In this document: piece by piece, positions 1,746 to 19,972 of the stretch
Layout of the letters: each line of letters starts with the position of its first letter
How positions within the stretch are numbered: the stretch's first letter is position 1
Assembly (NCBI GenBank): GCA_000934665.2
Contig: KZ538061.1
Coordinates: forward strand, 117,077 to 137,076
Direction: 5' to 3'
Length of the DNA: 20,000 nt
Source: Catajapyx aquilonaris
Taxonomy: Eukaryota
Made by a program: the position numbers and the translations under genes
The notes under the pieces: model-generated
What the model was told of the DNA's origin: nothing
The model's database searches: none
Seen by the model: only the letters and a program-made list of their open reading frames with translations

Positions 1746-2453
1746 TCACGTCTGACGCCACTTTTTGCCTCCACCGCCGTGACCGTGACCTCCGCCTCCC
1801 TTCTTGCCACCCTTTTTGTTGCCCTTGCCCTTGTTCTTCTTCTTGTTCTTCTTCCTCTTCTGCTTCTGGGCCTTCTTGCCGTAAACTCCCTTGTAGGTGT
1901 GTCCCTTCACGCCCCAGCCATATGGACCTTTGCTCTTGTGGCTGTACACCGGGTAGTGACCTCCTCCGCCACCGTGACCTCCGCCGCCGCCGCCGCCTCC
2001 GTACCTACAAATGCAGTCAGTAGCAAATTGCATTTGTTGCAAAAAAATCCATGCTCACTTACTTAACAACAATAGGACGCCACCACATCCAGTCGGCGGT
2101 GTCCAAATCTGTCTCCAACTCTTCCTTTTCGCCATCTCGCTGACCCCATGCTATCGTCGCCAGGACGATCAGCAAGGAGCCAAGGAGCTGTGTGAACAAA
2201 TAATAAAAAAACAGCAAGTTAACATCTGACCTAACTGGCAATTGACCAACTGTACCGTTACAGTTAGCACTCACTGCCAAATTTTTTTCGCAAAATTTAA
2301 TTTTAAAAATAAATTGCGAGATAGGCAACAATTTAACACCAAACTACAAAAAATTAAGTCCACGCACTAATTTTTGCACGATGGTTTCCATAAATACACG
2401 CGCGATATCACTGTTCCTGCTTGTGGTCACCAACTTACCACCAGTCTCATCAT
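1746..2453 (-). CDS. Small secreted Gly/His/Lys-rich cationic protein, 132 aa, 3 coding exons (cluster gene A)
   Basis: Exons 2453-2439 (MMRLV|GTAAGT), 2187-2063 (cacag|LLGSLLIVLATIAWGQRDGEKEELETDLDTADWMWWRPIVV, AA|GTAAGT) and 2004-1746 (tgtag|G, YGGGG...KKWRQT*). Phases 0 and 2 join in frame. Hydrophobic signal peptide, upstream TATA, minus-strand AATAAA at 1520-1515. Confidence 0.85.
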
Positions 2454-2591
2454 GTTTTCTCAGCTAGTCCTCCCCACAACCACTGGCCCAAATGGTAGTG
2501 TCCCCCACAACTGATGTAATCCCACAAAGCTCCTCAGGTTCCCCGTTGGACACCGGAGGAGATACGCCGGCAACAGCCCCCAACAACAGCC

Positions 2592-2600
2592 TTATATATA
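2592..2600 (-). promoter_or_regulatory. TATA box of gene A
   Basis: TATATATAA on the minus strand, about 140 nt upstream of the ATG at 2453. Confidence 0.55.
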
Positions 2601-5515
2601 CCTTCCTCTTCACCCCCCGAGACACGCCAAGAAACAAGAATCGCAGACTTGATAATTCATCTGAACGTGAGGCCGAGACTTCCGGAATTGGTGGAATGTT
2701 TCACGCGCGAATCTTTCCCATGAACCGTTAATAAAACGCATGTAGGTGGGGATTACTAAAGGGGAGGGGTCCAATTCCTATCAATTTTTTAGGGGGGTCT
2801 TAGAGCAAGTCTAAAGGGCGCGAAGTTTAAGTCCCGCATATTGTTGAGGATATAGTTTTTTTTTTATGTCTTCGGCTCTTTTTTTCTCCACCCTCCCACC
2901 TCTTACATCGTTTTGACCTATTGGGTTCGTCGTCGTTCTGAAAAAAGAAGAAAAAAAAGGGCCAGCCAATGATGAGGTTGGATGTTTAGCGGGGTCGTGG
3001 AGTCTCCTGCAGGAAACCGCTTGCTTCCTGGAGTCAATGGCCTCAACTGTGGTGGTTGGTGCCTTCCAGATGCCAGCTGGCTGGATGGCCCAGACCTTGC
3101 TCCAAGGACCAATGCTCCCTGGGTTCATGTCCAGTCTCACCCTGTTTGCCTCCCCCGAAGACATCACACGAGCTGACCATTACGACGTGGAGGCCGCGCT
3201 GAGGTCATCCGCACCCACGCCACGTCTTGCGGCTTTTCCGACGCACAACTTGCGCCATTAGTGCGGCACTCTTTGTGAATCACGTGCGATGGGGCTTATT
3301 AGAGGGGGGAACGTAATAATTTGCAATCAACTGAGACTGTCAATTGCCATTTTTGATGGATGTCGTCAAACCAAAATGGTACATCCAGATGTGGGTGCAG
3401 CAATGTTTACAATGCATAATCCGATGTAATAAGACAAAAACCGGTCTTTAGTACAGTAGTTGCTATTAACTTTGGTTTTAAGGTGACGACTGATCTTTAG
3501 TCGGGATCTTTGTTGCCATCAGCATCAATTTGTAGAAGCAATGAAACTAGTTGGAATGACAAATATGGCAGGGTTTACTGCATGTTTAGCTACTAAGTAG
3601 CGTTGATCTCGTGACTTTAGATCATAGAATAATATTAATGCTTTCCCGGATTTGTTGGCTTTCTTTTTCAAACCAAAGTCGTGCATGTCATCAAGGCTAC
3701 CGGAATGACCCATTTCCAATGCCCTGAGGAGCAACATTAAGCTATTTTTTTGAATCCTTTTGCTACCTGAATCCGTTCAGCCTAAATAGTCTTCCAGCTA
3801 CGATATAACCTGAAAAAGAGGCGAACTTAGAATGATTACACTGATGCAGTTATTGTGATGTGCGTAGGGTTTTTTTAACTGTTTATTCGTTGAATAGCTC
3901 CATACATTTTTATTATCGAGTTTGATTTTCAATCAATTCCTAGAATGCAAGTGCATCTCTGGGAATAAACTGGTTCAATAAAGGTTCAACTTCTTGAGGT
4001 TTTCATTTGGTGATGATGGTGTGTATATAAAAGAGCAATCAGCAATCAAAATAGTTGTGCCTCAATTTCCAAAAACATCGGGATTGCCTCAATGATTGAC
4101 TGATGTCTGATTAATTAAAGTACCAAAATTCACTTACATCCTTCATGCAAACTGTGATGATGGAAACACTAAACTACTGGTCATGAAATCTGAAGCCGAA
4201 TTGAAAATAAAATCTCCTTACATTTGTTTAGTATGGAATAAGTTGAGAAGAGAGGACTTCGTACCTCTCTATTTTCATAAAAATTCAGCAAAAATTGCAA
4301 AAATGTTTGCACCACAAACAAAAAACTACATCAACCATTCCATCGTGACAATGCTAAGAAACAACGAAACTCCATAATTTGACTGATAATACGCAACATT
4401 CCATCCTCCTGGAGCATGTCTGATGTCATCCAATTCTCCCGCCGATAATGCATGACATCTTCCGTTTTTTTTCTGCCCTGCTGGGAAACCGGAGAAGAAG
4501 AAACCACACCTCGAAAATGATGCATCCCCGAGGCTACCAAGCCTCATTAGAACCTCGCCATTGCAAGAGTTCAAGGCAGTAAAACTATGCATCCTCAGCG
4601 GTATTATCAAGCAATGCAGCAGGCAATGACTTTACAGCTTTTGACAACAGGAAATGCTGCCCCAATAGTTTTACGATGTCATATAGAATGTGTCACACTT
4701 TTTTTTTTTTACTATTTCGATTCCCTTTTCTAGGTATGGAAAATAACCTAAGACAATATAATTCATGAAAAAAAGGAGGAGCTATAATAGAAAATTCGTC
4801 CACTTTTCCTTCATACATGTATTCGGGGCAGCATGTCACTAGCTTACATTATGTCCTTTTCAGGAATAACAAAAGGAGGACTCTTTGATATCCGTTTTTC
4901 TACTGAAGCAGTAGCTGGAACCTTGACCGTTGTGCTGGACTGGTTCTTGGAACACACACAACAAACCGGATCCTCAAACACCACCGAGACTTGCACGTGC
5001 AGTGAATTGGGAATGGATTGGAAAAAATTCCGATACATGTTAACACCCGTTGAAAAGTGATGCCTTTCGTTAAGACCCGTCGTAAAACCCGGTTGTACTA
5101 TCAGGTACAGGGCTTGAAACCTAAGCAATATCTGACCTCCGCATTACTTGGCACGAGGTCATCTGGAAGGCTAATACGGATCCATCCCACTTTTGTGATA
5201 AGCTCTTTTTTATTCTAACACCCAAAGTATTTCAGTAGGCTGCAGTTCCTGGAGAAATGTAGGTCCACGTCAAACACTCCTCTTAACCCAATTTTTGATC
5301 TCGTTACTGGTGCTGGAATGGTGTGAATTACCATGCTTTTTTTGATACAAATATGGAGTCTCCCTCGAAGCAACTTTTACTTTCGAGCTGGTGCCATGTG
5401 GATGCTAAAATTAGATACCGGCTCTGCAAGTTTACTTAGGGCTTGAAAGGGAAATGACAAAAGTAAAAGTCACTTGGTATATAAATGTTTATTCTTTCAC
5501 ATACAAAAAGTGTGG

Positions 5516-5853
5516 TTAGCGGCCAAAGAACGGATAGGGAAATCTGCAACAAAAATTGGTGTCGAATTAGACTTTAAAAAATGTTTTCAAAACAGGATTT
5601 AGGTTGGGGAAAATATCAAGCTGAACAAACCCTCCTCCGTAGATGCTGATACCAACAGGGAATATTAGAAATTCTGATTCTTGCATTGTTTCCTTTTCCT
5701 CCGCCGCAACTAATGCGACCAGAAGGCTCAGGCAGTAAAGAAGCTGCACAAGTATAAGTTAAATTACTTCAAATAATTTTTTTAAATGTAAATGTCGGAG
5801 TGTATGCACAGTATTTAACTTACGGCAATTGATGCTCTGCAGAGCCTGTCCAT
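5516..5853 (-). CDS. Small secreted peptide precursor, 56 aa, ending in Gly-Arg (cluster gene B)
   Basis: Exons 5853-5824 (MDRLCRASIA|GTAAGT), 5743-5631 (tgcag|LLYCLSLLVALVAAEEKETMQESEFLIFPVGISIYGG, GG|GTTTGT) and 5543-5516 (ttgttgcag|A, FPYPFFGR*). Introns of 80 and 87 nt, phases 0 and 2. AATAAA at 5493-5488. Confidence 0.8.
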
Positions 5854-5895
5854 GGTTTGCTTCTGTTTTGATATATTTTGTCTCTCTCAGACCGC

Positions 5896-5902
5896 TTATA
5901 TA
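5896..5902 (-). promoter_or_regulatory. TATA box of gene B
   Basis: TATATAA about 45 nt upstream of the ATG at 5853. Confidence 0.6.
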
Positions 5903-7495
5903 GTCATTTGGAAGGCCAGATTTTTCGGGTTGTTTTTGGTTTTTGGAACCCAACTTTCGAAATATTGCGACATATACAAGCCTTGGTGCAATACTGAAAT
6001 TGACTCAACTGATAAATGTTGTGATGAGTCGGGTCCAAGACACATATTTGTGTTACTGGAGCAAAAATGAAACATTTATGCGTAATGAATATTTCATAGT
6101 AACCACTCCTTGGATATAGCGAGGAAACGCCACGCAGTCGCCGGAAAACACCTAACGTCACTTGCACCTGGAAAACCTGCTTTGTGGAATTTTTGGGCTG
6201 TATACAACCGTAGGCCTTGCTTAGGATGTTGGTAGCAAGTTTTTCTGGAATAAAAGTAGCTGTGATTTGCTGGGTCTTGAGAGACTTTTACTATCGCCAT
6301 TTTCAAGTCTTGCATTGGAGAAGGCATGCAGGATGAGCTATAAAGACACCATCAACCTAACGTGATCACTGATCGTTCCACGTGCATATTTCAACACTGC
6401 GAATTAATTATGTCCACATTTTCAAATCGATTCTAATTTCCATAAACTGTTGCAATTAAATCTCACAAAACTATGATTTTTATTGCAGAAATTTTATTAC
6501 TGTGGCAGAATATCAAGGGAGGTACTTAGGCCTACCTCATGCAAACGAATTAATTTGGCCATATTTGCTAAGTAGCGTTGACAGTGGAAAAGTGAATCTC
6601 GTTTAGGTCTGTACTGTCTGAATTTTATGTCAACAGACCAACCTACTTATTGAATACCGTTTTCAAAACAAGTTAGGCTAACGATACGTTGCTGACGTTT
6701 TGCAAAATACAAGTCAGGAAGTAGGCCCACCTGTCTGGAAACGAAGTAATAGGCCTACTCTACACTCCTCAATTATTTTTCACATCATTACGGCTAAATT
6801 CCCCATAATTATTTGGCAATTTTAAAATTTAAAAAAAAAACTGAAGCCCACCTTATATGGAGCCCTTGATGGTCTTGGCACCACACACAACCTTCTCAGC
6901 TGAATAGAATAACTGTGGTCATTTTTATAAAACTGGTAATGTATGGGCAAGTCCTTGTTACTTAGGCAGAGTTTTATATAAGTCGGGCCACAGTCGGGCC
7001 ATGCATCTAACATGTCAAGAGCACACGACACAGGCACGTATTAAGTTCATTCTAAGGCCGTGAGAAAATTACTTTGTTTCTAAAGTGTCTGAACTATTAC
7101 CACTTCGTGACCTCATTACGCCCAAAAGCTACCGTACTAGTAATGGGAGTCATGTGACCTTGTCAATGATGCCGTTAATTATAAATGTAATATGCCACAC
7201 AGAACTCATGATACTGCCAATATTGATTTTAATCCTCCGAAACTAACATTAAAATTGTTCATTATTAAGGTACGTTTGAAAAGGTCGCTATTATGAAACG
7301 TCGTAAGAGTGAGGCCTTCTGAATTGCGATTAATTAAACGAAATAAATCTATATCTAATATTCTATTTTAATGAATGCATAAATTCATTTTTAGTTTCTG
7401 TTATTGAATGCCATCTTTTTATGTGTCATATTTTAAGCCTGCATTTACTATTTTGACTTACGTTTCCTATACATTGTTGACCACACATTTTACAC

Positions 7496-7732
7496 CGACT
7501 TTATAATTGATATATTTAAGGAGGTTGGCCCAGCATTGCCTTCCAACCTCCAAGGATAGGGAAGGAAGGAAGCGGCTGTGGCCTATTATACGGAAGCAAC
7601 CCCGGAATTATCCTAGAAAGACCGTGGAAAACCACAGAAAACCACGGTCAAGGTTGCCGGCCCCGGGATTCGAACCCAGGACCTCCCAATTAGCAGTCGG
7701 ACGCCTTAGCCACTATGCCAACCTGCTTCGGT
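7496..7732 (-). mobile_element. tRNA-derived SINE with 12-bp target-site duplication
   Basis: Minus-strand head ACCGAAGCAGGT-TGGCATAGTGG (A box)...GGTTCGAATCC (B box). Direct repeat CACATTTTACAC at 7484-7495 and 7733-7744. From memory, the body resembles Lm1/Talua-type insect SINEs (not verified). Confidence 0.85.
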
Positions 7733-8241
7733 CACATTTTACACTGAGGGAAACATTGCTTTGTTTTTTTCGGTTTGGTTTTGAGAAGCAACACGAACCA
7801 AATGAACACTGGATTTTCAGAATGATCAGAGGACCTTGTGGTCAAAATTGAGCCTTTCATCAGGTCAGTTATCTATAGAGAAATTCTAGTCTCCCATGGA
7901 TAGTTATTTGAAAAGAATCGATCCCAATAGGAATTATGCAATTTCAAAATTCAAATGGGCTCACGTTGCTATTTAAAATAATTAGTTTATGTTGCAGTAT
8001 TATGTACCATTATGCTATAGTTAGATCGTTCTGCATTTTCAGTATTTAGTTGTGTCGCATCAAGTAATCTCTTATTGTAGATGGACCTGTAAGCAGGAGA
8101 AGTATGTCCGGGAACAAAAATAAGCAAATCTGTACGCCAACAATATTTTATTGGCAAAATCATGGCATGATGAACAGCAAGTGTAAACGTACAAGAAACG
8201 ACAGCAATGAAATAAACAATGAAAGATTGCTTCTGCAAGCG

Positions 8242-8549
8242 TTACCACCACCATCCGCCATAGAATCCGGGGAACAGGCCGAATCCAAATCTGAAATCAG
8301 TGAAATGGGAGTAAGTCCCCGTCCTTCACCCTATGAGCCCCAGTCATTTTGATTATAAGTTATTTACCCCCATGGTCCCCAGAAGGTTTGCGACGTCTCC
8401 ATTTCCTCCTTGTCCTGTTCCTTTGCAGGTGCTGCCATCGCTAAGCACACCACCAGAGCCACCAAAAGAAGAGGCTGCCCAACAATGCTATTTGGTTAAC
8501 AACCTCAAGATTTATTTCTCAATTTTTAACTTACCAGGAAAGCCTTCAT
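8242..8549 (-). CDS. Small secreted Gly/Trp/Phe-rich peptide precursor, 56 aa (cluster gene C)
   Basis: Exons 8549-8535 (MKAFL|GTAAGT), 8474-8368 (ggcag|PLLLVALVVCLAMAAPAKEQDKEEMETSQTFWGPW, GG|GTAAAT) and 8290-8242 (tttcag|A, FGFGLFPGFYGGWWW*). Introns of 60 and 77 nt, phases 0 and 2. AATAAA at 8152-8147. Not present in the ORF track. Confidence 0.85.
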
Positions 8550-8621
8550 GTTGTAATATATTATAGTAAGTTCAAACTGACAGTGCCGAAGACTAGGACC
8601 AGGGTCAGACCACAGGGCCAG

Positions 8622-8628
8622 TTTTATA
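8622..8628 (-). promoter_or_regulatory. TATA box of gene C
   Basis: TATAAAA about 75 nt upstream of the ATG at 8549. Confidence 0.6.
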
Positions 8629-9220
8629 TGGGTGGTCAAGGGTACATTTCACCCGAAACCAAAAACAACATTAAGTAGCTCTATAGTGAAAACAAGTTTT
8701 ATCAGAAATGGCCCTCTTCTAATCCAAATATAGATTGGGAGAAATTGTTGTTTGTAAAGTTCCTGTCTAGAAGCAGGTGTAATTTAGGCATAATATTTTA
8801 ATTGCGACCCTTACCGGCGATACGCTCAAGGAATTTGTCTAATTGCATTTTTGGCCAGATTCCCGTAAATAAAACATACCGGTTGGAGAGCGGATATTGT
8901 TAAAGTATATAACAGGAACGGTTTTTTTTACTATTGTAGTATACTGCTATCTGAACCAACTATGGAACAATCGGATACGTGTCAGGCCAATTTTTAATTG
9001 ACATCACTAGTATTGGTTTCATGTAGGAATTTTTGGTCAATAAATTCAATAACTTGGGCTACATTTTTTGGTACCTTTGTCTCGTTGGATTGGCCTGTGT
9101 GAGGGCAGATGTTTCGACAGAGGCTGACCTAACTGTACCAGTAAGATGGCCAGGAGCAGAGCAAGAACCAAAGACGAAATGGAGGGGTGGGTGGGAGAGA
9201 TGGGGGTGTGGGGGTAGAGA

Positions 9221-9256
9221 AAGAAGAAGAAGAAGAAGAAGAAGAAGAAGAAGAAG
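9221..9256. repeat. (AAG)12 microsatellite
   Basis: Twelve perfect AAG units read directly from the sequence. Confidence 0.95.
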
Positions 9257-10276
9257 AGAAGGAAAAAAAAAGCGAAGTGGGCAAATGTGGAGCGAGACCT
9301 GCTGATGAGGGTCCGAGGCCAAACAGGCCTCCTCTTCATTTATCCGCTACGTGCCCTTCTTTGCTCCTACACCCTGTACATTGCACCTGACACGTCAACC
9401 CATCTTTTTTTTCTTCTGACAAGTTTTCATCTCATTAATCATCAGGATATGTGACGCACTCTCATATGAGAAGGACTGTACAGTACCTCTTGTAAGGGCT
9501 TAATCAGGCTTACAGTTAGTTAAGTTGAAATAAATTTACGAACTGTGATGTGGATGACCTCCTGGCCAGACTCATCTGGTGAGAGGTCAGTCTTTTCTCA
9601 TTCAAGTAAAGTCATTTAAAATTCAAAATCAAGCAGTTATTACATAGTAGCCTAATATTAATTAATATCATATTTTCTCTCTTTACACTCCTTTACTGAC
9701 AATTCTGATGGTGTTGGCACTTTGAATACGTTAGGCACATGATCCAGACGAGCCAATCGTGTAGATGCACGCTTACGCATAGTTTTTCATGTGCACTAAA
9801 TTAATTCAATGATAATAAATGCACGAAGATAACTGCTCACCAAAGCCTAATTCAAACTGTAACCCGCCAGATGCCCCTGCCAACTCCTATCGGGACATTG
9901 CGCGCCATCTACCGTGCAAATGGCCAAACTACATACAGCCAAAGAGGTGCACTATCGCCATCTACCGCCCAACAGACGAGTTAGAATGGAGGCCATTTTA
10001 GTTGACTGCGCGCCAAAAAGTGCTTCCAACACCCTCCGGCAGATGGTGCTGCCAACCCGCTGTGCTACATCCGACCCCGAAATTAAACTGCTCTGCTATT
10101 TCCGCCCCTCCTCTCCTCTTCATCTTTTTCCCAGGCCGAGGAAGCTCGTCTTGTTTTCCCGTCTTCCTTCCTCTGCCCTCCATTACAAGGGAAGGAAAAC
10201 CAGCCCTCGGCCCGCTGCAAAGAAGAAGAGGAGGAGGAGGAGGAGGAAGAGGAGAGAGAGGGCCGGAGAGGGCAGG

Positions 10277-11783
10277 ATGAGCGGGACGACGAGCATGCGT
10301 GTGCCAGGGGAGTTCCCGCCCAGGGCCCGCGTGGTCAAGCTGAGGGTGAAGGTGGGGTCCAGGGTGTCTGCGGGGCAGGTCGCGGTGGTCTGCCACTCGG
10401 CCCTGCTGGAGGACGAGGGGGATGCCGATGGGGACGGGGAGGGAGAAGGAAGGAAGGAGCAGTGGAAGGTGAAGGCCACTGGGGCGGGGACGGTGCTGGC
10501 CCTGGAGGTCAAGGAGGGGGACCTGGTGGCCCCCGGGCAGAGGCTGGCCGAGGTGGGCAGCTGCACGCATCCCACCGTCATGAGGGACATGTGCGCAGAG
10601 TGTGGCCTCAGCCTGGCCGAGGGAGGGCCGGAGGACCCAGACGCTGCCTCAGTCGCCATGGTGCACAGCGTGCCCGAGCTCAAAGTCAGCGTCAAGGTAA
10701 TGCGGCACAGGGCACCATGAAGGACATGTCACTGCCGAAATGCAAAGACATTCCTGCAAGTAAAGCAGAGCTTGCATCCTGGGAACTTCTATTGTATTGT
10801 GCTCTAGTTGCCTAACCAAAACAACATTTTCCAGGACAAAGCAGGCATTGTGTTATTGTACTGACACAATTGTCAAGTCGAAAGAGGGTAGAGTGGAGCT
10901 TCATAATCGTTGATTCAGGCCTTTAATACCATAATCAACACCCACACCGAAGAAATGGCGCAGTCTTGTGCCATAAATTTTGGTTGAAAGTGTAACATAA
11001 GCATATGATTTCATGCAAAAGACTTATTTTTAAAGGTAGTGGCAATCAGCAAAGTAATGCCTGCAGTAAAAAGACGCCAGCATTATCTTCCTGTAAAGTA
11101 TTGAGTTACCAGAACTAGAGCTTATTGACCATGAGATTCATGAGATATTATTGTGCAATGACTATAGAAACATACAACGGGTATTGTAGGTGACCCTGGA
11201 CGTCACATCTTGTGTAATAACTTGAAATGATGTCATTAATTCTCAGGTTCTTGCAGTGCAAGGTCAATGTATATCCTAGTGTAACTTTGCAGCTTAATTA
11301 CATCCATGTAAATATTGCAGGAAGCGCATATTTTGGGGAAGGCCGATGAGGAGCGACTTCTGAGGCACCACAAGCTGGTCCTTCTGGTTGACTTGGACCA
11401 GACTTTGATTCACACTACCAATGACAACATACCACCAAACCTCAAGGTAAGACTTAGACGTGTGAGTATGCTAAGAGCAGTTGATATTCAAATAAAAACT
11501 GCAAGGTCAGGTAATATTTTGTTTCAAATTCGTTCCAGGACGTGTACCACTTCCAGTTGTATGGTCCTAGCTCACCTTGGTACCACACTCGCCTGAGGCC
11601 TGGAACGCATGACTTTCTCAGGAAAGTGAGCGCCCTGTATGAGCTGCACATATGTTCCTTTGGCACTCGAGGGTATGCGCACCGAATAGCCTCCTTTCTT
11701 GACCCAGATGGGAGATACTTTGCACAGCGAATACTCTCCAGGGATGAATGCTTCAATTCAACTTCCAAGACTGCCAATCTTAA
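10277..11783 (+). CDS. CTDP1: RNA polymerase II CTD phosphatase FCP1/CTDP1, 5' part (exons 1-3 only)
   Basis: Exons 10277-10696 (lipoyl-like N-terminal domain, CTHPTVMRDMCAECG, VAMVHSVPELKVS; AAG|GTAATG), 11321-11446 (KLVLLVDLDQTLIHTT with the DxDxT catalytic motif) and 11539-11783 (WYHTRLRPG...YELHICSFGTRGYA...RILSRDECF...SKTANL; AA|GTATGT). Canonical splice sites, frame preserved. Confidence 0.95.
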
Positions 11784-12030: not shown

Positions 12031-12164
12031 CTCCGAGGGTATAAACAGTTTTTCTGAGAGACGAACGGTAAGGCCAGGGCGAAAGCTGGAAGTGCGTCGT
12101 TCGAAAACCGCGCTCAAACGGGCCCGGCGCCACCCCAAGGGTGACGTTGGATAGTAGCGCCGCC

Positions 12165-13061
12165 CAAAGAGCTTAATACTAGGAAGAGTGGAAAAAACAG
12201 CTGGTAGCATAGCAACCGTGTCTCCAATCGACTGACCTGCCACCTGGCGATCGACAGCCAAACTCGATACTGTATTGTACAATACGGTAGATCGAGGCAG
12301 TGCAGGAAATATGGCAATGAAAGCCCCAGAGGTTGGAAATAAGTCATAAGTACTAGTATACTCCCGTCAGATTGCCGACAAAACATGTTGCAGAAGACCT
12401 GTGAATAAAAAACCATCACGAAAAGCAAATATTATTTGCCAGAAGTTTATTGATTTCCACTACAATCCCACACTCTGCTCTATACAATACACACCAAGGT
12501 ACACACTGATAATGATGCTGAACATGGTCACATGACAGGAAGATATACCCCCCGCTGCCATCTTGTCGTGGCGGGACGGGCTTGTTCTTCTTCCCGTGAA
12601 CTCGAGAGCCTTGGAGGGCCCTTTGGTAACGAAAAGAATGTGATCCGAGACCCTGTGCGCGAACAGCAGTATAGTAGCACGCGGCACCCGAACGTCTACG
12701 CCACACTATGCCGGCAAAGGAACTTGTTCAATTTCGAAATTCGAACGTGATTTCTAAGCAACGAGGTGATTATTTGTATTGTTAGGTGCAGGGTGACCAG
12801 CTGCGCAGAATATCACTTTCGGGTCCAATATTAGTTCCTTAACCCCATAAGACCTCATATTGGTCAGTTTTTAGATGTATAACTCTTAATTATGTGCCTC
12901 TTGATATTAAATCAACACAGTGTATTGAAATTCATCTCGACAGCACTCGACGGTGGCGCCGCGTAGTGGCCGACAACCAAACACGTTGACCAAACAAGTG
13001 GCCAAAAAGTGGCGACGCTTGGAAACCGTTTTTTCCACTCTTCCTAGTATTAAGCTCTTTG
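12165..13061. mobile_element. Non-autonomous TIR element with CAAAGAG...CTCTTTG ends (P-superfamily-like)
   Basis: Perfect 34-bp inverted repeat CAAAGAGCTTAATACTAGGAAGAGTGGAAAAAAC at 12165-12198 and 13028-13061. No TSD found. Confidence 0.7.
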
Positions 13062-13065
13062 GTAC

Positions 13066-13356
13066 CAAAGAGTTCTGCTATATTATATATACACCTAGAG
13101 GAGGTACTCGGCCTGAAATGTGAGGCAGGCAACAATGCAGGCAACAATATGACCTTCAACAAGATGGCGGACGCCTGACATTATTGAACTAATTGTCGCC
13201 CAGTTGTCATTATTGGTTGTTGTCCCAGTTGCTAGACAACTGTTAGAACAACAACATGACCTTCAACAAGATGGCGACTGCCTCAGCCTGTCTAATGGAA
13301 AAGGATAGGGAGTTACCTCCTCTAGGTATTATATTATATAATAGCAGAACTCTTTG
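13066..13356. mobile_element. 291-bp MITE, P-element-like, with 8-bp TSD
   Basis: Imperfect ~45-bp TIRs starting CAAAGAGTTCTGCTAT and ending ATAGCAGAACTCTTTG. TSD TTTGGTAC at 13058-13065 and 13357-13364. Internal 21-bp direct repeat ATGACCTTCAACAAGATGGCG at 13149 and 13256. Confidence 0.9.
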
Positions 13357-14092: not shown

Positions 14093-14730
14093 AAAGCCAA
14101 GTTCTCGCCGCACTGCGGGACCAACTTTACGCGACACAACTCCCGTCATTTTGACCCCCTCGAATCTTCGCACTGGTTAACATAGGTGGCTTCAAAATTT
14201 TTATTTGGGTAGATAAAAATCAGGTAAAAATAATACCCCCTTACTTCCATGTTTATATCTCTTTTCATTTCCGACTTTAAAAATCCTAAAACTACCAAAA
14301 CGGCCAAAATATGACACTAACTGACTGACTGACTCACTGACTGATCATCAAAATTATACGGAACTTCCAGTGGTCCTAGGCTGCTGAAATTTGGTATGCT
14401 GGTAGAGCTTGTCAAACAAACATCAGAATAAATCTGAAAACGGCTAACCACAAACTTTGTTTTTCCAGGTCGACCTTAAGTTTAATCATCAAAAAATTAT
14501 AATGGAATTTCTCTTGCTGTAACTTGGCCATTGCTCTTAAAACATTGAAACAGTTGTACAATTCAACAATACCACGGACATGAGCAATGGCCAAGTTACA
14601 GCAAGAGAAATTCCATTATAATTTTTTGATGATTAAACTTAAGGTCGACCTGGAAAAACAAAGTTAGTGGTTTAGGTTGAAGAAGTTGATAATGCCAGTA
14701 ATTGACAACGACGTTGAACTTGGCCGTATT
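14093..14730. mobile_element. Helentron-associated (DINE-1/HINE-like) non-autonomous element
   Basis: Short inverted motif GCCAAGTTC (14096-14104) / GAACTTGGC (14716-14724), mini-hairpin CCGCACTGCGG (14108-14118), (ACTG)n microsatellite at ~14316-14344 followed by GCTGAAATTTGGTATG. Family assignment is by structure only. Confidence 0.5.
14446..14672. repeat. Long inverted repeat: 91-bp arms, 45-nt spacer
   Basis: 14453-14536 is the exact reverse complement of 14582-14665 (84 bp). It extends to 14446/14672 with one mismatch. Confidence 0.95.
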
Positions 14731-15720: not shown

Positions 15721-16067
15721 GGGCCAACCCCACCCCGAGCCAACAGATGGCGCGCGCGGCAGCTTCGCCAGTTTTCTGTAGAGGGAGTGTCCGGTATTAG
15801 CGAAGCGCGTTAATAGTATTTGATGTTATTGCTCATCAAAGTTGTTTACTATCTGCGCGCCACCTAGCAACTAAACGGTCCGCTCGCTAGCGCCGCCCGC
15901 CTGACGCGTCTGAGCGCACCCGTTGCTTGCCTACATGAACCCCCTCTAGATGGCGTTTCCGACCACGGGTTCCTATGTCAAAAATGTTTGTCTTGGTCCC
16001 GTCTATCACCCCTTAAGTTTTTATTTAAAATTCATAGGGCCGCAGGTCAAGAACAAGAGGCACTTAC

Positions 16068-17184
16068 TGAGGACGAATCCTGCCGCGTAGGCTCCGGCGC
16101 AGCATGCAGCGACCACGAATCGGAGGGCGACGAAAACGACGTAGTTGGGCGCAGATGCGGTTGCGATGGCAAATGGGATCTGGACGCAGGCGGCGATGAT
16201 GATGCACCACCGCCTACCCATCCTGTCAAATTAAAATGCGACCTGTATGGACACGACACACCACACAATCCTTCAACTCACTTGTCCGACACCATGCCTA
16301 AGAATATTGCTCCGAGTGCCACTCCCACCATGTATATGGACTGGCCTAATGGTTTATAGGCGGCGTCGCTGCACACGTGGCGATTCTGTTTGGATCAAGA
16401 TTTTGTTGAGTGTACGGCGCGTTAGTCGGGCACTTCAACCTACCTCGGTGACGGTTGTGTTGTGGTAATAGGTATTGTTGAAAATCCATTCCTTGCAGGG
16501 CTCATTATGCTTTTTGTCACGCTTACCGATAAGTTCGTCTAAAGTAAAGTTAGCAATATCGTCGTCGAACTTGTACTTGTTACATTCGTCAAATATTTCT
16601 TCGCCGCTGAAAACAGGCAGCTTGTTATTACCAAATTCGCCACATAGTAATGCTCTAAACACCACCACCATTAAATTTCTCTCCATCACTTCTAAGTTGT
16701 TGTAAGTGACACGTACAGTAGCCTACATAGAGATCATAGATACCTACTTATCCGTTATGGTCATTATCGTGAGGTTCTTGATCTCTCCGTAGGTCCAGTT
16801 CGTCCCTTCTATCGTCTCTGGAACCTTGCACTGGAAATCTGGAGTGGCGCTCAGGAAGACGTAAGACACGTGATGGAAGCCGGTGAACATTCCTTCCAGG
16901 GCCAGCAGTGTGTAGATAATCCAATGCCATATTCCCAAGCGACCAGCCTCTTCAAGGATGGCTTCTCCTTCAGCTTTCTTTTTGTCCTGTCAAAGTTATC
17001 TTCTATAGTTACAACCCAATATTTCAAGCACATTACTCAACATACGATACTACTGTATGTCACGCTCAAGTTGTGTGTCAAGAAGTGTGTTTTGGTCAGC
17101 TTGTCACTAACATAGCGCGAATTTTTTTGTGACGCCAACTGTTGCTTAATAGTTATAGATTCTACTCACCTCTTCAGTCTCCAT
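16068..17184 (-). CDS. SLC22 / organic cation transporter (Orct-like, MFS), 5' part (coding exons 1-5 only)
   Basis: Exons 17184-17170 (METEE|GTGAGT), 16986-16748 (ILEEAGRLGIWHW...TM1...ATPDFQC), 16654-16444 (Cys-containing loop, PCKEWIFNNTYYHNTTVTE), 16385-16282 (VC...QSIYMVGVALGAIFLGMVSD) and 16222-16068 (MGRRW...APNYVVFVALRFVVA). MFS motif A (GMVSDKMGRR). All splice phases are compatible. Confidence 0.92.
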
Positions 17185-18779: not shown

Positions 18780-19077
18780 TCTTGGGAGTAAATCTGAACA
18801 TAATTATAATATTCTACGTGCTACATGCCCACAATAATTGTTTTGTGTAACAGTTTGATAACTACTGGAAAATAACAAACCAATTAATTACTAGTTGATT
18901 TCATTAATTATGGACACTGCAGAAAAATATGTCTCGCTGTATGGGTGGTATTATATGCCAGTAACCCTCCATGAGATCTTGATTCACGGCTCCTGTGTGA
19001 TCACTGACACTTTGCTGCCCATAGGGGAATTGTCAGAGGAAGCCCAGGAGTATAAGAATAAGAACATTAGGAGGTAT
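18780..19077 (+). pseudogene. Transib (RAG1-like) transposase fragment
   Basis: TAEKYVSLYGWYYMPVTLHEILIHG...LLPIGELSEEAQEYKNKNIRRY (18916-19077) matches the recalled Transib C-terminal core (HxxLxH zinc ligands, SEEAQE catalytic Glu region). A weaker remnant GVNLNIIIIFYVL lies at ~18785-18823. No intact ORF. Confidence 0.8.
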
Positions 19078-19530
19078 GTTGCCATCGCTGAGTCAGCACA
19101 CTATATGTCAGCCTGACTCAGCACCATCCCATATGAAATATTGGGACATCCGTAACAACTCAAAACATATGTAAGAGCCCTCAGCTAGTAATAAAGAAAA
19201 CAATAGCTGGCTGAGGTCAGCTCATTGATCAATATATAAACGCTGGACTCTTCCAATGTCAAGTCAGTCAGCAAGAGAGTGAGTGATCCAGCCAGTGATA
19301 CAGGGAAAAGGAGACTTCACCCTACGACATTCAGAAGAGGTAATTATGGCGACTGTCCCCCCCCCCNCCCCCCCTTTGTATTGAAAAGGGTCCATGTTAG
19401 TCCTATTCCATGTGAATTGATATATTGATGTATATGTTAGGCTCAAACCCCGAAAACGGCCATTGCGCGAAAAAACCGTCCATTCTGCAGAATGATAATG
19501 GATGGCGGATTTTGCAGAATGCTCCATGTC

Positions 19531-19560
19531 AAACCGTCCATTCTGCAGAATGGACGGTTT
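19531..19560. repeat. Perfect 30-bp palindrome with a partial upstream copy
   Basis: AAACCGTCCATTCTGCAGAATGGACGGTTT; its first 22 bp are repeated at 19473-19494. Confidence 0.9.
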
Positions 19561-19805: not shown

Positions 19806-19972
19806 TACCTCCAAATATTTATTACCATTATTACTAGTACATCATTTCCAAGAACGGTGTTACTTCCAAATATTTATTACCATTATTACTAGTACATCAT
19901 TTCCAAGAGCTGTGTTAGGCCTACCTCCAAATATTTATAACCATTATTACTAGTACATCTTCTTCCAGGAAC
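19806..19972. repeat. Minisatellite, 3 copies of a ~55-61 bp unit
   Basis: TAC(C/T)TCCAAATATTTAT(T/A)ACCATTATTACTAGTACATC begins at 19806, 19861 and 19922. Confidence 0.9.

Follow-up and report, generated by a model that had tools for sequence, protein, structure and literature searches.

Three co-oriented small genes for predicted secreted, cysteine-free, low-complexity proteins with an acidic head motif in a 20-kb window of Catajapyx aquilonaris

The window analysed here is a whole stretch of 20,000 nucleotides (nt) from Catajapyx aquilonaris (GCA_000934665.2, contig KZ538061.1, positions 117,077 to 137,076 of the forward strand). Its subject is three candidate genes for small secreted proteins, g1, g2 and g3, which lie about 3 kb apart on the minus strand in one orientation. 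Coordinate-based translation gives a complete three-exon open frame for each (132, 56 and 56 amino acids (aa) for g1, g2 and g3, respectively), and no frame is interrupted. Positions of exons, signals and motifs, together with intron lengths and donors, are collected in Table 1. GT-AG boundaries are present in six of six introns; in g1, g2 and g3 alike the first intron falls in phase 0 and the second in phase 2. Intron 1 interrupts the predicted signal peptide after codon 5 (g1), 10 (g2) and 5 (g3), and all three of its donors read GTAAGTT. The donor of intron 2 in g2 is weak (AGG/GTTTGT, exon boundary at the slash); because of this, an unspliced read-through product ending 22 codons further on is a possible alternative to the Gly-Arg end of that protein.

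A sequence-only reading had described one common design in three co-oriented mini-genes, and that description holds: exons, intron phases, acidic stretches and the run-on into aromatic residues are all present as it claimed, and so are the TATA box and the AATAAA signal that it assigned to each gene. Its Gly-rich third exon was borne out for g1 (32 Gly in 86 residues) and g3 (6 in 16) and did not stand for g2, where two of nine residues are Gly.

Table 1 Features of the three genes and of the neighbouring FCP1/CTDP1 gene. Positions are those of the window; products are as predicted from the translations.
Feature	Positions	Strand	Description
g1 coding exons	2453-2439 / 2187-2063 / 2004-1746	minus	132 aa
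g1 TATA box TATATATAAG	2591..2600 (position 2598)	minus	145 nt 5' of ATG
g1 exon 1	2439..2453	minus	5 codons, start of predicted signal peptide; then 251-nt phase-0 intron, donor GTAAGTTG
g1 exon 2	2063..2187	minus	remainder of predicted signal peptide, acidic stretch, Trp-rich hydrophobic stretch; phase-2 end; then 58-nt intron
g1 acidic motif EKEELET	2110..2130	minus	precursor residues 25-31
g1 exon 3 and stop codon	1746..2004	minus	Gly/His/Tyr runs and Lys-rich polycation; 32 Gly in 86 residues
g1 AATAAA	1515..1520	minus	225 nt past stop codon
g1 predicted mature protein			112 aa; pI 10.2; net charge about +19; 33 Gly, 23 Lys, 6 His
g2 coding exons	5853-5824 / 5743-5631 / 5543-5516	minus	56 aa
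g2 TATA box TATATAAG	5895..5902	minus	49 nt 5' of ATG
g2 exon 1	5824..5853	minus	10 codons; then 80-nt phase-0 intron, donor GTAAGTTAAA
g2 exon 2	5631..5743	minus	core of predicted signal peptide, acidic stretch, hydrophobic/aromatic stretch; phase-2 end; weak donor GTTTGT; then 87-nt intron
g2 acidic motif EKETMQE	5678..5698	minus	precursor residues 26-32
g2 exon 3 and stop codon	5516..5543	minus	Phe/Pro/Tyr peptide, C-terminus Gly-Arg
g2 AATAAA	5488..5493	minus	22 nt past stop codon
g2 predicted mature protein			32 aa; pI 4.33; net charge -3; 7 aromatic residues
g3 coding exons	8549-8535 / 8474-8368 / 8290-8242	minus	56 aa
g3 TATA box TATAAAA	8622..8628	minus	79 nt 5' of ATG
g3 exon 1	8535..8549	minus	5 codons; then 60-nt phase-0 intron, donor GTAAGTTAAA
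g3 exon 2	8368..8474	minus	core of predicted signal peptide, acidic stretch, start of Trp/Phe/Gly tail; phase-2 end; then 77-nt intron
g3 acidic motif DKEEMET	8394..8414	minus	precursor residues 26-32
g3 exon 3 and stop codon	8242..8290	minus	Gly/Phe/Trp tail, last three residues Trp; 6 Gly and 8 aromatic in 16 residues
g3 AATAAA	8147..8152	minus	89 nt past stop codon
g3 predicted mature protein			36 aa; pI 4.25; net charge -3; 11 aromatic residues
FCP1/CTDP1 (RNA polymerase II C-terminal domain phosphatase), first three coding exons	10277-10696, 11321-11446, 11539-11783	plus	biotin/lipoyl-like N-terminal domain and NIF phosphatase domain

TATA boxes occur in the window at a background rate of 0.85 per kb per strand. 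The -3 position is A at all three ATGs, and the intervals from TATA box to start codon, 273 nt when summed, hold no ATG against about 4.9 expected (Poisson P about 0.007). A generic scan for the gene structure (an ATG with 2-11 codons after it, then GTRAGT, 40-400 nt of intron and YAG, and finally 30 or more open codons of which the first 15 residues are hydrophobic), which ignores the acidic and Gly/aromatic features and covers both strands of the window, matched at the g1, g2 and g3 loci only. Across 200 third-order Markov simulations the same scan gave a mean of 0.035 matches, with at least one match in 6 of 200 and at least three in 0 of 200; the pattern was devised with the genes already in view, so these figures serve only as a guide. 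GC at third codon positions amounts to 0.70 in g1, 0.48 in g2 and 0.62 in g3; it is 0.74 in the exons of the neighbouring FCP1 gene, and the GC content of the window is about 40% (per-kb range about 0.33-0.58, mostly about 0.4). A 92-nt intron of FCP1 is confirmed by homology, so that intron lengths of 58-87 nt are nothing unusual here. We take g1, g2 and g3 to be very probably real genes; each would be an independent TATA-driven transcription unit for one small secreted protein.

Every one of the three proteins starts with an n-region of charge +1, after which comes a stretch of 14-18 residues without charge (simple counts), and cleavage of the predicted signal peptide was placed by eye, according to the -3/-1 rule, after residue 20 (g1), 24 (g2) and 20 (g3). 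The predicted mature parts contain no Cys. In the translations of g1, g2 and g3 no KR, RR, KK or RXXR separates the acidic motif from the aromatic stretch; this interval of g1 contains one Arg, which precedes a Pro, and one Lys. For want of such a site after the acidic stretch the acidic head is not marked as a removable propiece. The proposal of the sequence-only reading that an acidic propiece is removed to release a mature antimicrobial or venom peptide therefore finds no support in any of the genes, and the net charge of the g2 and g3 products (-3) speaks against it as well. The DNA of the Lys block of g1 (1814-1867), which is rich in AAG, matches a (GAA)n microsatellite on the opposite strand (9216-9271) at 83-91% over 34-52 nt, which suggests that the polycation may have grown by microsatellite-like repeat expansion.

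The acidic head holds a common block (Table 1), whose first residue is residue 25 (g1), 26 (g2) and 26 (g3) of the precursor. The best ungapped three-way blocks score 63 (7 residues) and 65 (9 residues), and neither score was reached in 5000 composition-preserving shuffles over the 25 post-signal residues (0/5000 each); at 11 residues the score was reached by 2 of 5000. A relaxed form of the motif occurs in only three places in the six reading frames of the window, namely g1, g2 and g3, a circular count, given that these same genes supplied the motif. Five residues of the motif are identical in g1 and g3, three of them through different synonymous codons, the pattern expected for old copies under constraint. 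Features common to g2 and g3 are the length of 56 aa, the first 10 bases of intron 1 (GTAAGTTAAA) and the codon split as GG/A, followed by TTT, at intron 2. It is likely that the three genes are paralogous, and the case is stronger for g2 with g3 than for g1; the copies would probably be old and fast-diverged, with no recent duplication. The paralogous family that had been suggested at the outset thus survives as a probable set of distant paralogues, on the near-constant spacing between start and motif and on the common intron phases, both of which were found in all three genes.

Homology searches were made with single-exon pieces of 35-85 residues, not with spliced proteins, and their negative outcomes are weak because exon pieces lower the sensitivity and because the source proteome is missing from the protein database. 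The latter is indicated by exon 1 of the neighbouring FCP1/CTDP1, which has no self-match in that database (the best of 31 matches is 48% identical); blanks for the peptides are therefore uninformative on annotation or novelty. A Pfam scan of the three exon-2 peptides and exon 3 of g1 (4/4 pieces; exon 3 of g2 and of g3 being too short) gave no family at E<=10. The word-indexed protein search gave no candidate for exon 2 of g3 and 402 candidates for exon 3 of g1, none of them at E<=1; the ESM Atlas gave no usable match for exon 3 of g1, and its top score for exon 2 of g3, 0.75, lies in the range of noise. Metagenome scans gave 601 pattern matches for exon 3 of g1 and 599 for the unspliced g2 frame, none confirmed in either case, and Rfam had no match in the gene region. 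A full HMMER search with exon 2 of g1 returned four matches at E<=0.001, which were dismissed as artefacts: long repeat proteins (480-2320 aa) with scores summed over 5-10 weak repeats.

The reading that we prefer, with a probability of roughly 0.55, sees in the three genes a lineage-specific family whose products are secreted, Cys-free and of low complexity, each with an acidic head and an aromatic/Gly tail. The tiny exon 1 would supply the first codons of the signal peptide; exon 2 the rest of it, the acidic head with its motif (consensus [ED]-K-E-[ET]-[LM]-[EQ]-[TE]) and the aromatic or hydrophobic stretch; exon 3 a divergent low-complexity tail, namely Gly/His/Tyr runs and a Lys polycation (g1), a Phe/Pro/Tyr peptide ending in Gly-Arg (g2) or a Gly/Phe/Trp peptide (g3). 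The precursor would enter the endoplasmic reticulum by its predicted signal peptide, be cleaved at the sites given above and be secreted as a Cys-free product that would retain its acidic head, since nothing marks the head for removal. The aromatic/Gly tails could then self-associate or bind polysaccharide, with Tyr, His and Lys as potential cross-linking sites. A matrix or surface role, cuticle- or eggshell-like, is by analogy our leading guess at function, and a tentative one that we hold at a little under even odds.

Among eggshell proteins, the insect chorion genes resemble the present ones in coding for small Gly/Tyr-rich secreted structural proteins, in being clustered and in an intron that follows a very short first exon and lies in the signal-peptide region; silkmoth chorion genes lie in divergent pairs, whereas g1, g2 and g3 are co-oriented singles. 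The likeness to cuticular protein genes (CPR, CPG and CPLC type) is closer in gene structure. According to PMC2259329, the signal peptide is interrupted in 86% of the intron-bearing Anopheles CPR genes, first exons measure 3-36 nt (mode 12), 93% have a TATA box and an initiator element (INR), and the mature proteins contain little Cys. With first exons of 15, 30 and 15 nt that split the predicted signal peptide and with a TATA box at each gene, g1, g2 and g3 all fall within this architecture [benchmark as in PMC2259329]; tandem, co-oriented clustering and mature proteins that lack Cys and abound in Gly, aromatic residues, His and Lys are further points of likeness (Cornman et al. 2008, PMC2259329; Cornman 2010, PMC2932725). 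Gly-rich low-complexity repeats are described as typical of cuticular proteins in PMC2932725.

Several observations weigh against this reading. The short signal-peptide exon is a feature of a class and gives weak support for paralogy or for a cuticular role: PMC2259329 calls short first exons "not unique to CPR genes", and an obstacle to annotation. With the same exon pieces no match at E<=10 was found to the Rebers-Riddiford chitin-binding consensus (Pfam chitin_bind_4) or to the GYR (PF02756) and YLP (PF02757) motifs described in PMC2932725, all three of them points of difference from cuticular proteins, and two of the products are predicted to be only 32 and 36 residues long. Such mature proteins would be unusually small for structural ones. 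To our knowledge the acidic N-terminal motif has no counterpart in cuticular proteins. The signal peptides are predicted from inspection by eye and simple counts, and the Gly-Arg end of g2 is a possible amidation signal, typical of bioactive peptides. The arthropod-like placement of the window is of moderate strength, as it comes from one gene fragment and from a sample without crustaceans, chelicerates or other ecdysozoans. As regards kinship, DNA similarity among the three genes and their flanks extends to words of 8-10 nt only, self-comparison of the window gives no duplicated segment that covers g1, g2 or g3, and no promoter word except TATA is common to the three. The exon-2 peptides are 28-35% identical in pairs, largely inside the hydrophobic core, and pairwise local alignments of the 25 post-signal residues are weak, the observed score being equalled in 170 (g1-g2), 49 (g1-g3) and 66 (g2-g3) of 2000 shuffles.

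Host defence is the main rival to a matrix role. The genes would then code for antimicrobial or other effector peptides, with a conserved signal and acidic region and with hypervariable mature parts that act on microbes or on a host; we consider this unlikely, the least so among the alternatives. It draws on the strongly basic mature part of g1 (Table 1), a Gly/His/Lys polycation whose composition resembles that of the Gly/His-rich antifungal peptides of beetles and flies; on C-terminal regions that diverge fast next to a preserved N-terminal motif; and on the Gly-Arg end of g2. This type of Gly-rich antimicrobial peptide also includes holotricin 3, tenecin 3 and acanthoscurrin. Frog-skin dermaseptin-type precursors likewise have a conserved N-terminal region, then an acidic stretch and a hypervariable C-terminal part, and their acidic spacer ends in a Lys-Arg processing site; g1, g2 and g3, unlike them, have no Lys-Arg after the acidic stretch, nor any other dibasic or furin-type site between it and the aromatic part. 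The net charge of -3 in g2 and g3 is a second point against effectors: with the acidic head taken away, these products would carry a charge of about +1 or none and be extremely hydrophobic. No homologue of the described antimicrobial peptide families was found with the exon pieces.

The isopod armadillidins are the nearest parallel for host defence, with a conserved signal peptide, very variable, fast-diverging Gly-rich mature parts, occurrence in one lineage and no Pfam domain, all of which recall the present genes, as does the cationic, Gly/His-rich product of g1 (PMC7017220; see also PMC5031766). They differ in having repeated, Arg-rich GGGX units directly after the signal peptide (PMC7017220). 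None of the three genes shows cationic, Gly-rich repeats in that position, by the definition in PMC7017220: g1 is at about +19 but has an acidic head and no such repeat unit, and g2 and g3, with the same kind of head and likewise without GGGX repeats, are anionic.

A second alternative accepts the genes and denies the family: g1, g2 and g3 would be three unrelated genes for small secreted proteins, whose architecture is merely that of arthropod secreted and matrix proteins as a class. The lack of DNA similarity in genes and flanks, the low exon-2 identity, much of it in the signal core, and the pairwise shuffle counts given above all favour it, and first introns that split signal peptides are common (PMC2259329). 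Against it stand the three-way motif, at a near-identical residue number and reached in none of the 5000 shuffles; both intron phases, equal in all three genes, which are adjacent and co-oriented; and, for g2 and g3, the equal length, the split codon and the 10-nt intron start. On balance we judge common descent the better account and unrelated genes an improbable one, ranked below host defence.

It is less probable still that the three belong to an undescribed lineage-restricted family in which the acidic head, with its motif at residue 25-26, serves as a solubilising or targeting module and the products are antimicrobial, adhesive or signalling effectors processed without dibasic cleavage. 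Here the head would carry aromatic tails that are otherwise insoluble (one with three terminal Trp, one with a Phe-Phe-amide) as well as the Gly/His/Lys polycation.

That the loci are non-functional, either chance frames or decayed or untranscribed copies, is very improbable. Homologue searches without a match, the weak second donor of g2 and the post hoc design of the scan pattern can be cited for it; but at each of the three loci frame, splice signals, TATA box, start context and poly(A) signal come together with the lack of any ATG upstream, g1 and g3 have raised third-position GC (0.74 in the FCP1 exons by comparison), and no frame is broken. Precursors of amidated signalling peptides, neuropeptide- or hormone-like, are the least probable of all: the terminal Gly-Arg of g2 (...FF-Gly-Arg-stop) is the kind of end on which carboxypeptidase trimming and peptidylglycine alpha-amidation usually act, and the precursors are small with predicted signal peptides, but g2 has no basic cleavage site to set the N-terminus of such a peptide, g1 and g3 have neither that site nor a terminal amidation signal, and the 112-residue polycation of g1 does not fit.

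If expressed, the genes would enlarge, by a small lineage-specific family, the class of short secreted low-complexity proteins, which is large and has been little mapped. Genes of this kind are often missed by automatic annotation because first exons of 15-30 nt and a length of 56 aa are hard to call; the acidic motif provides a handle for finding more members in this genome and its relatives. A polycation of about +19 and two anionic Trp/Phe-rich peptides on one scaffold would, again if expressed, offer a useful example of tails that diverge fast. The family is plausible, lineage-specific and of an ordinary kind; it opens no long-standing question, and orphan clusters of similar kind are common in invertebrate genomes.

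Next to the three genes lie the first exons of FCP1/CTDP1 (Table 1), on which the placement of the window is based. In a tblastn of 31 FCP1 proteins against the window the conserved exons matched insects best (Timema, 73% and 84%). A tree was made from the three joined exons and 18 of the 31 proteins, one or few per group, leaving out 13 (further ants, marsupials, Callorhinchus isoforms, a fish, Elysia and a second Biomphalaria). In this tree the window is placed within a hexapod group; support is 86/84 at the arthropod fork and 95/91 at the protostome fork, and the best identity is 65% (Timema). This placement counts in favour of a matrix role of arthropod type.

Two further features lie between the genes. 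A tRNA-Ser(GCT)-like sequence at 7655-7726 (minus), between g2 and g3, was found with Rfam (tRNA, 36.5 bits) and with ARAGORN; as the tRNA-like part runs on into non-tRNA sequence, it is probably the head of a tRNA-derived short interspersed nuclear element (SINE) rather than a tRNA gene. Between g1 and g2, at 2917-3261 (plus), an open frame of 114 codons in a GC-richer patch has no Pfam match. In the FCP1 intron region, perfect 35-nt inverted repeats (12164-12198 and 13028-13062) flank about 900 nt and are adjoined by a second pair (13066-13106 and 13314-13356); these look like foldback mobile elements or elements similar to miniature inverted-repeat transposable elements (MITEs). A 229-nt palindrome at 14446-14672, its arms 87% complementary, matches the plant MITE-derived microRNA families MIR7504 and MIR6135 below their gathering scores; it probably represents a hairpin of MITE type and no microRNA gene.

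Open frames at 16021-16230, 16435-16722 and 16744-16989 (minus) resemble exons of a gene of the major facilitator superfamily (MFS; organic-cation-transporter-like), and one piece matches Pfam MFS_1 at 22.8 bits, below the curated cut-off of 33.4. A 73-codon open frame at 18895-19116 (plus), without a Pfam match and with direct and inverted repeats nearby (19473-19560, 19806-19972), may be the remnant of a mobile element.

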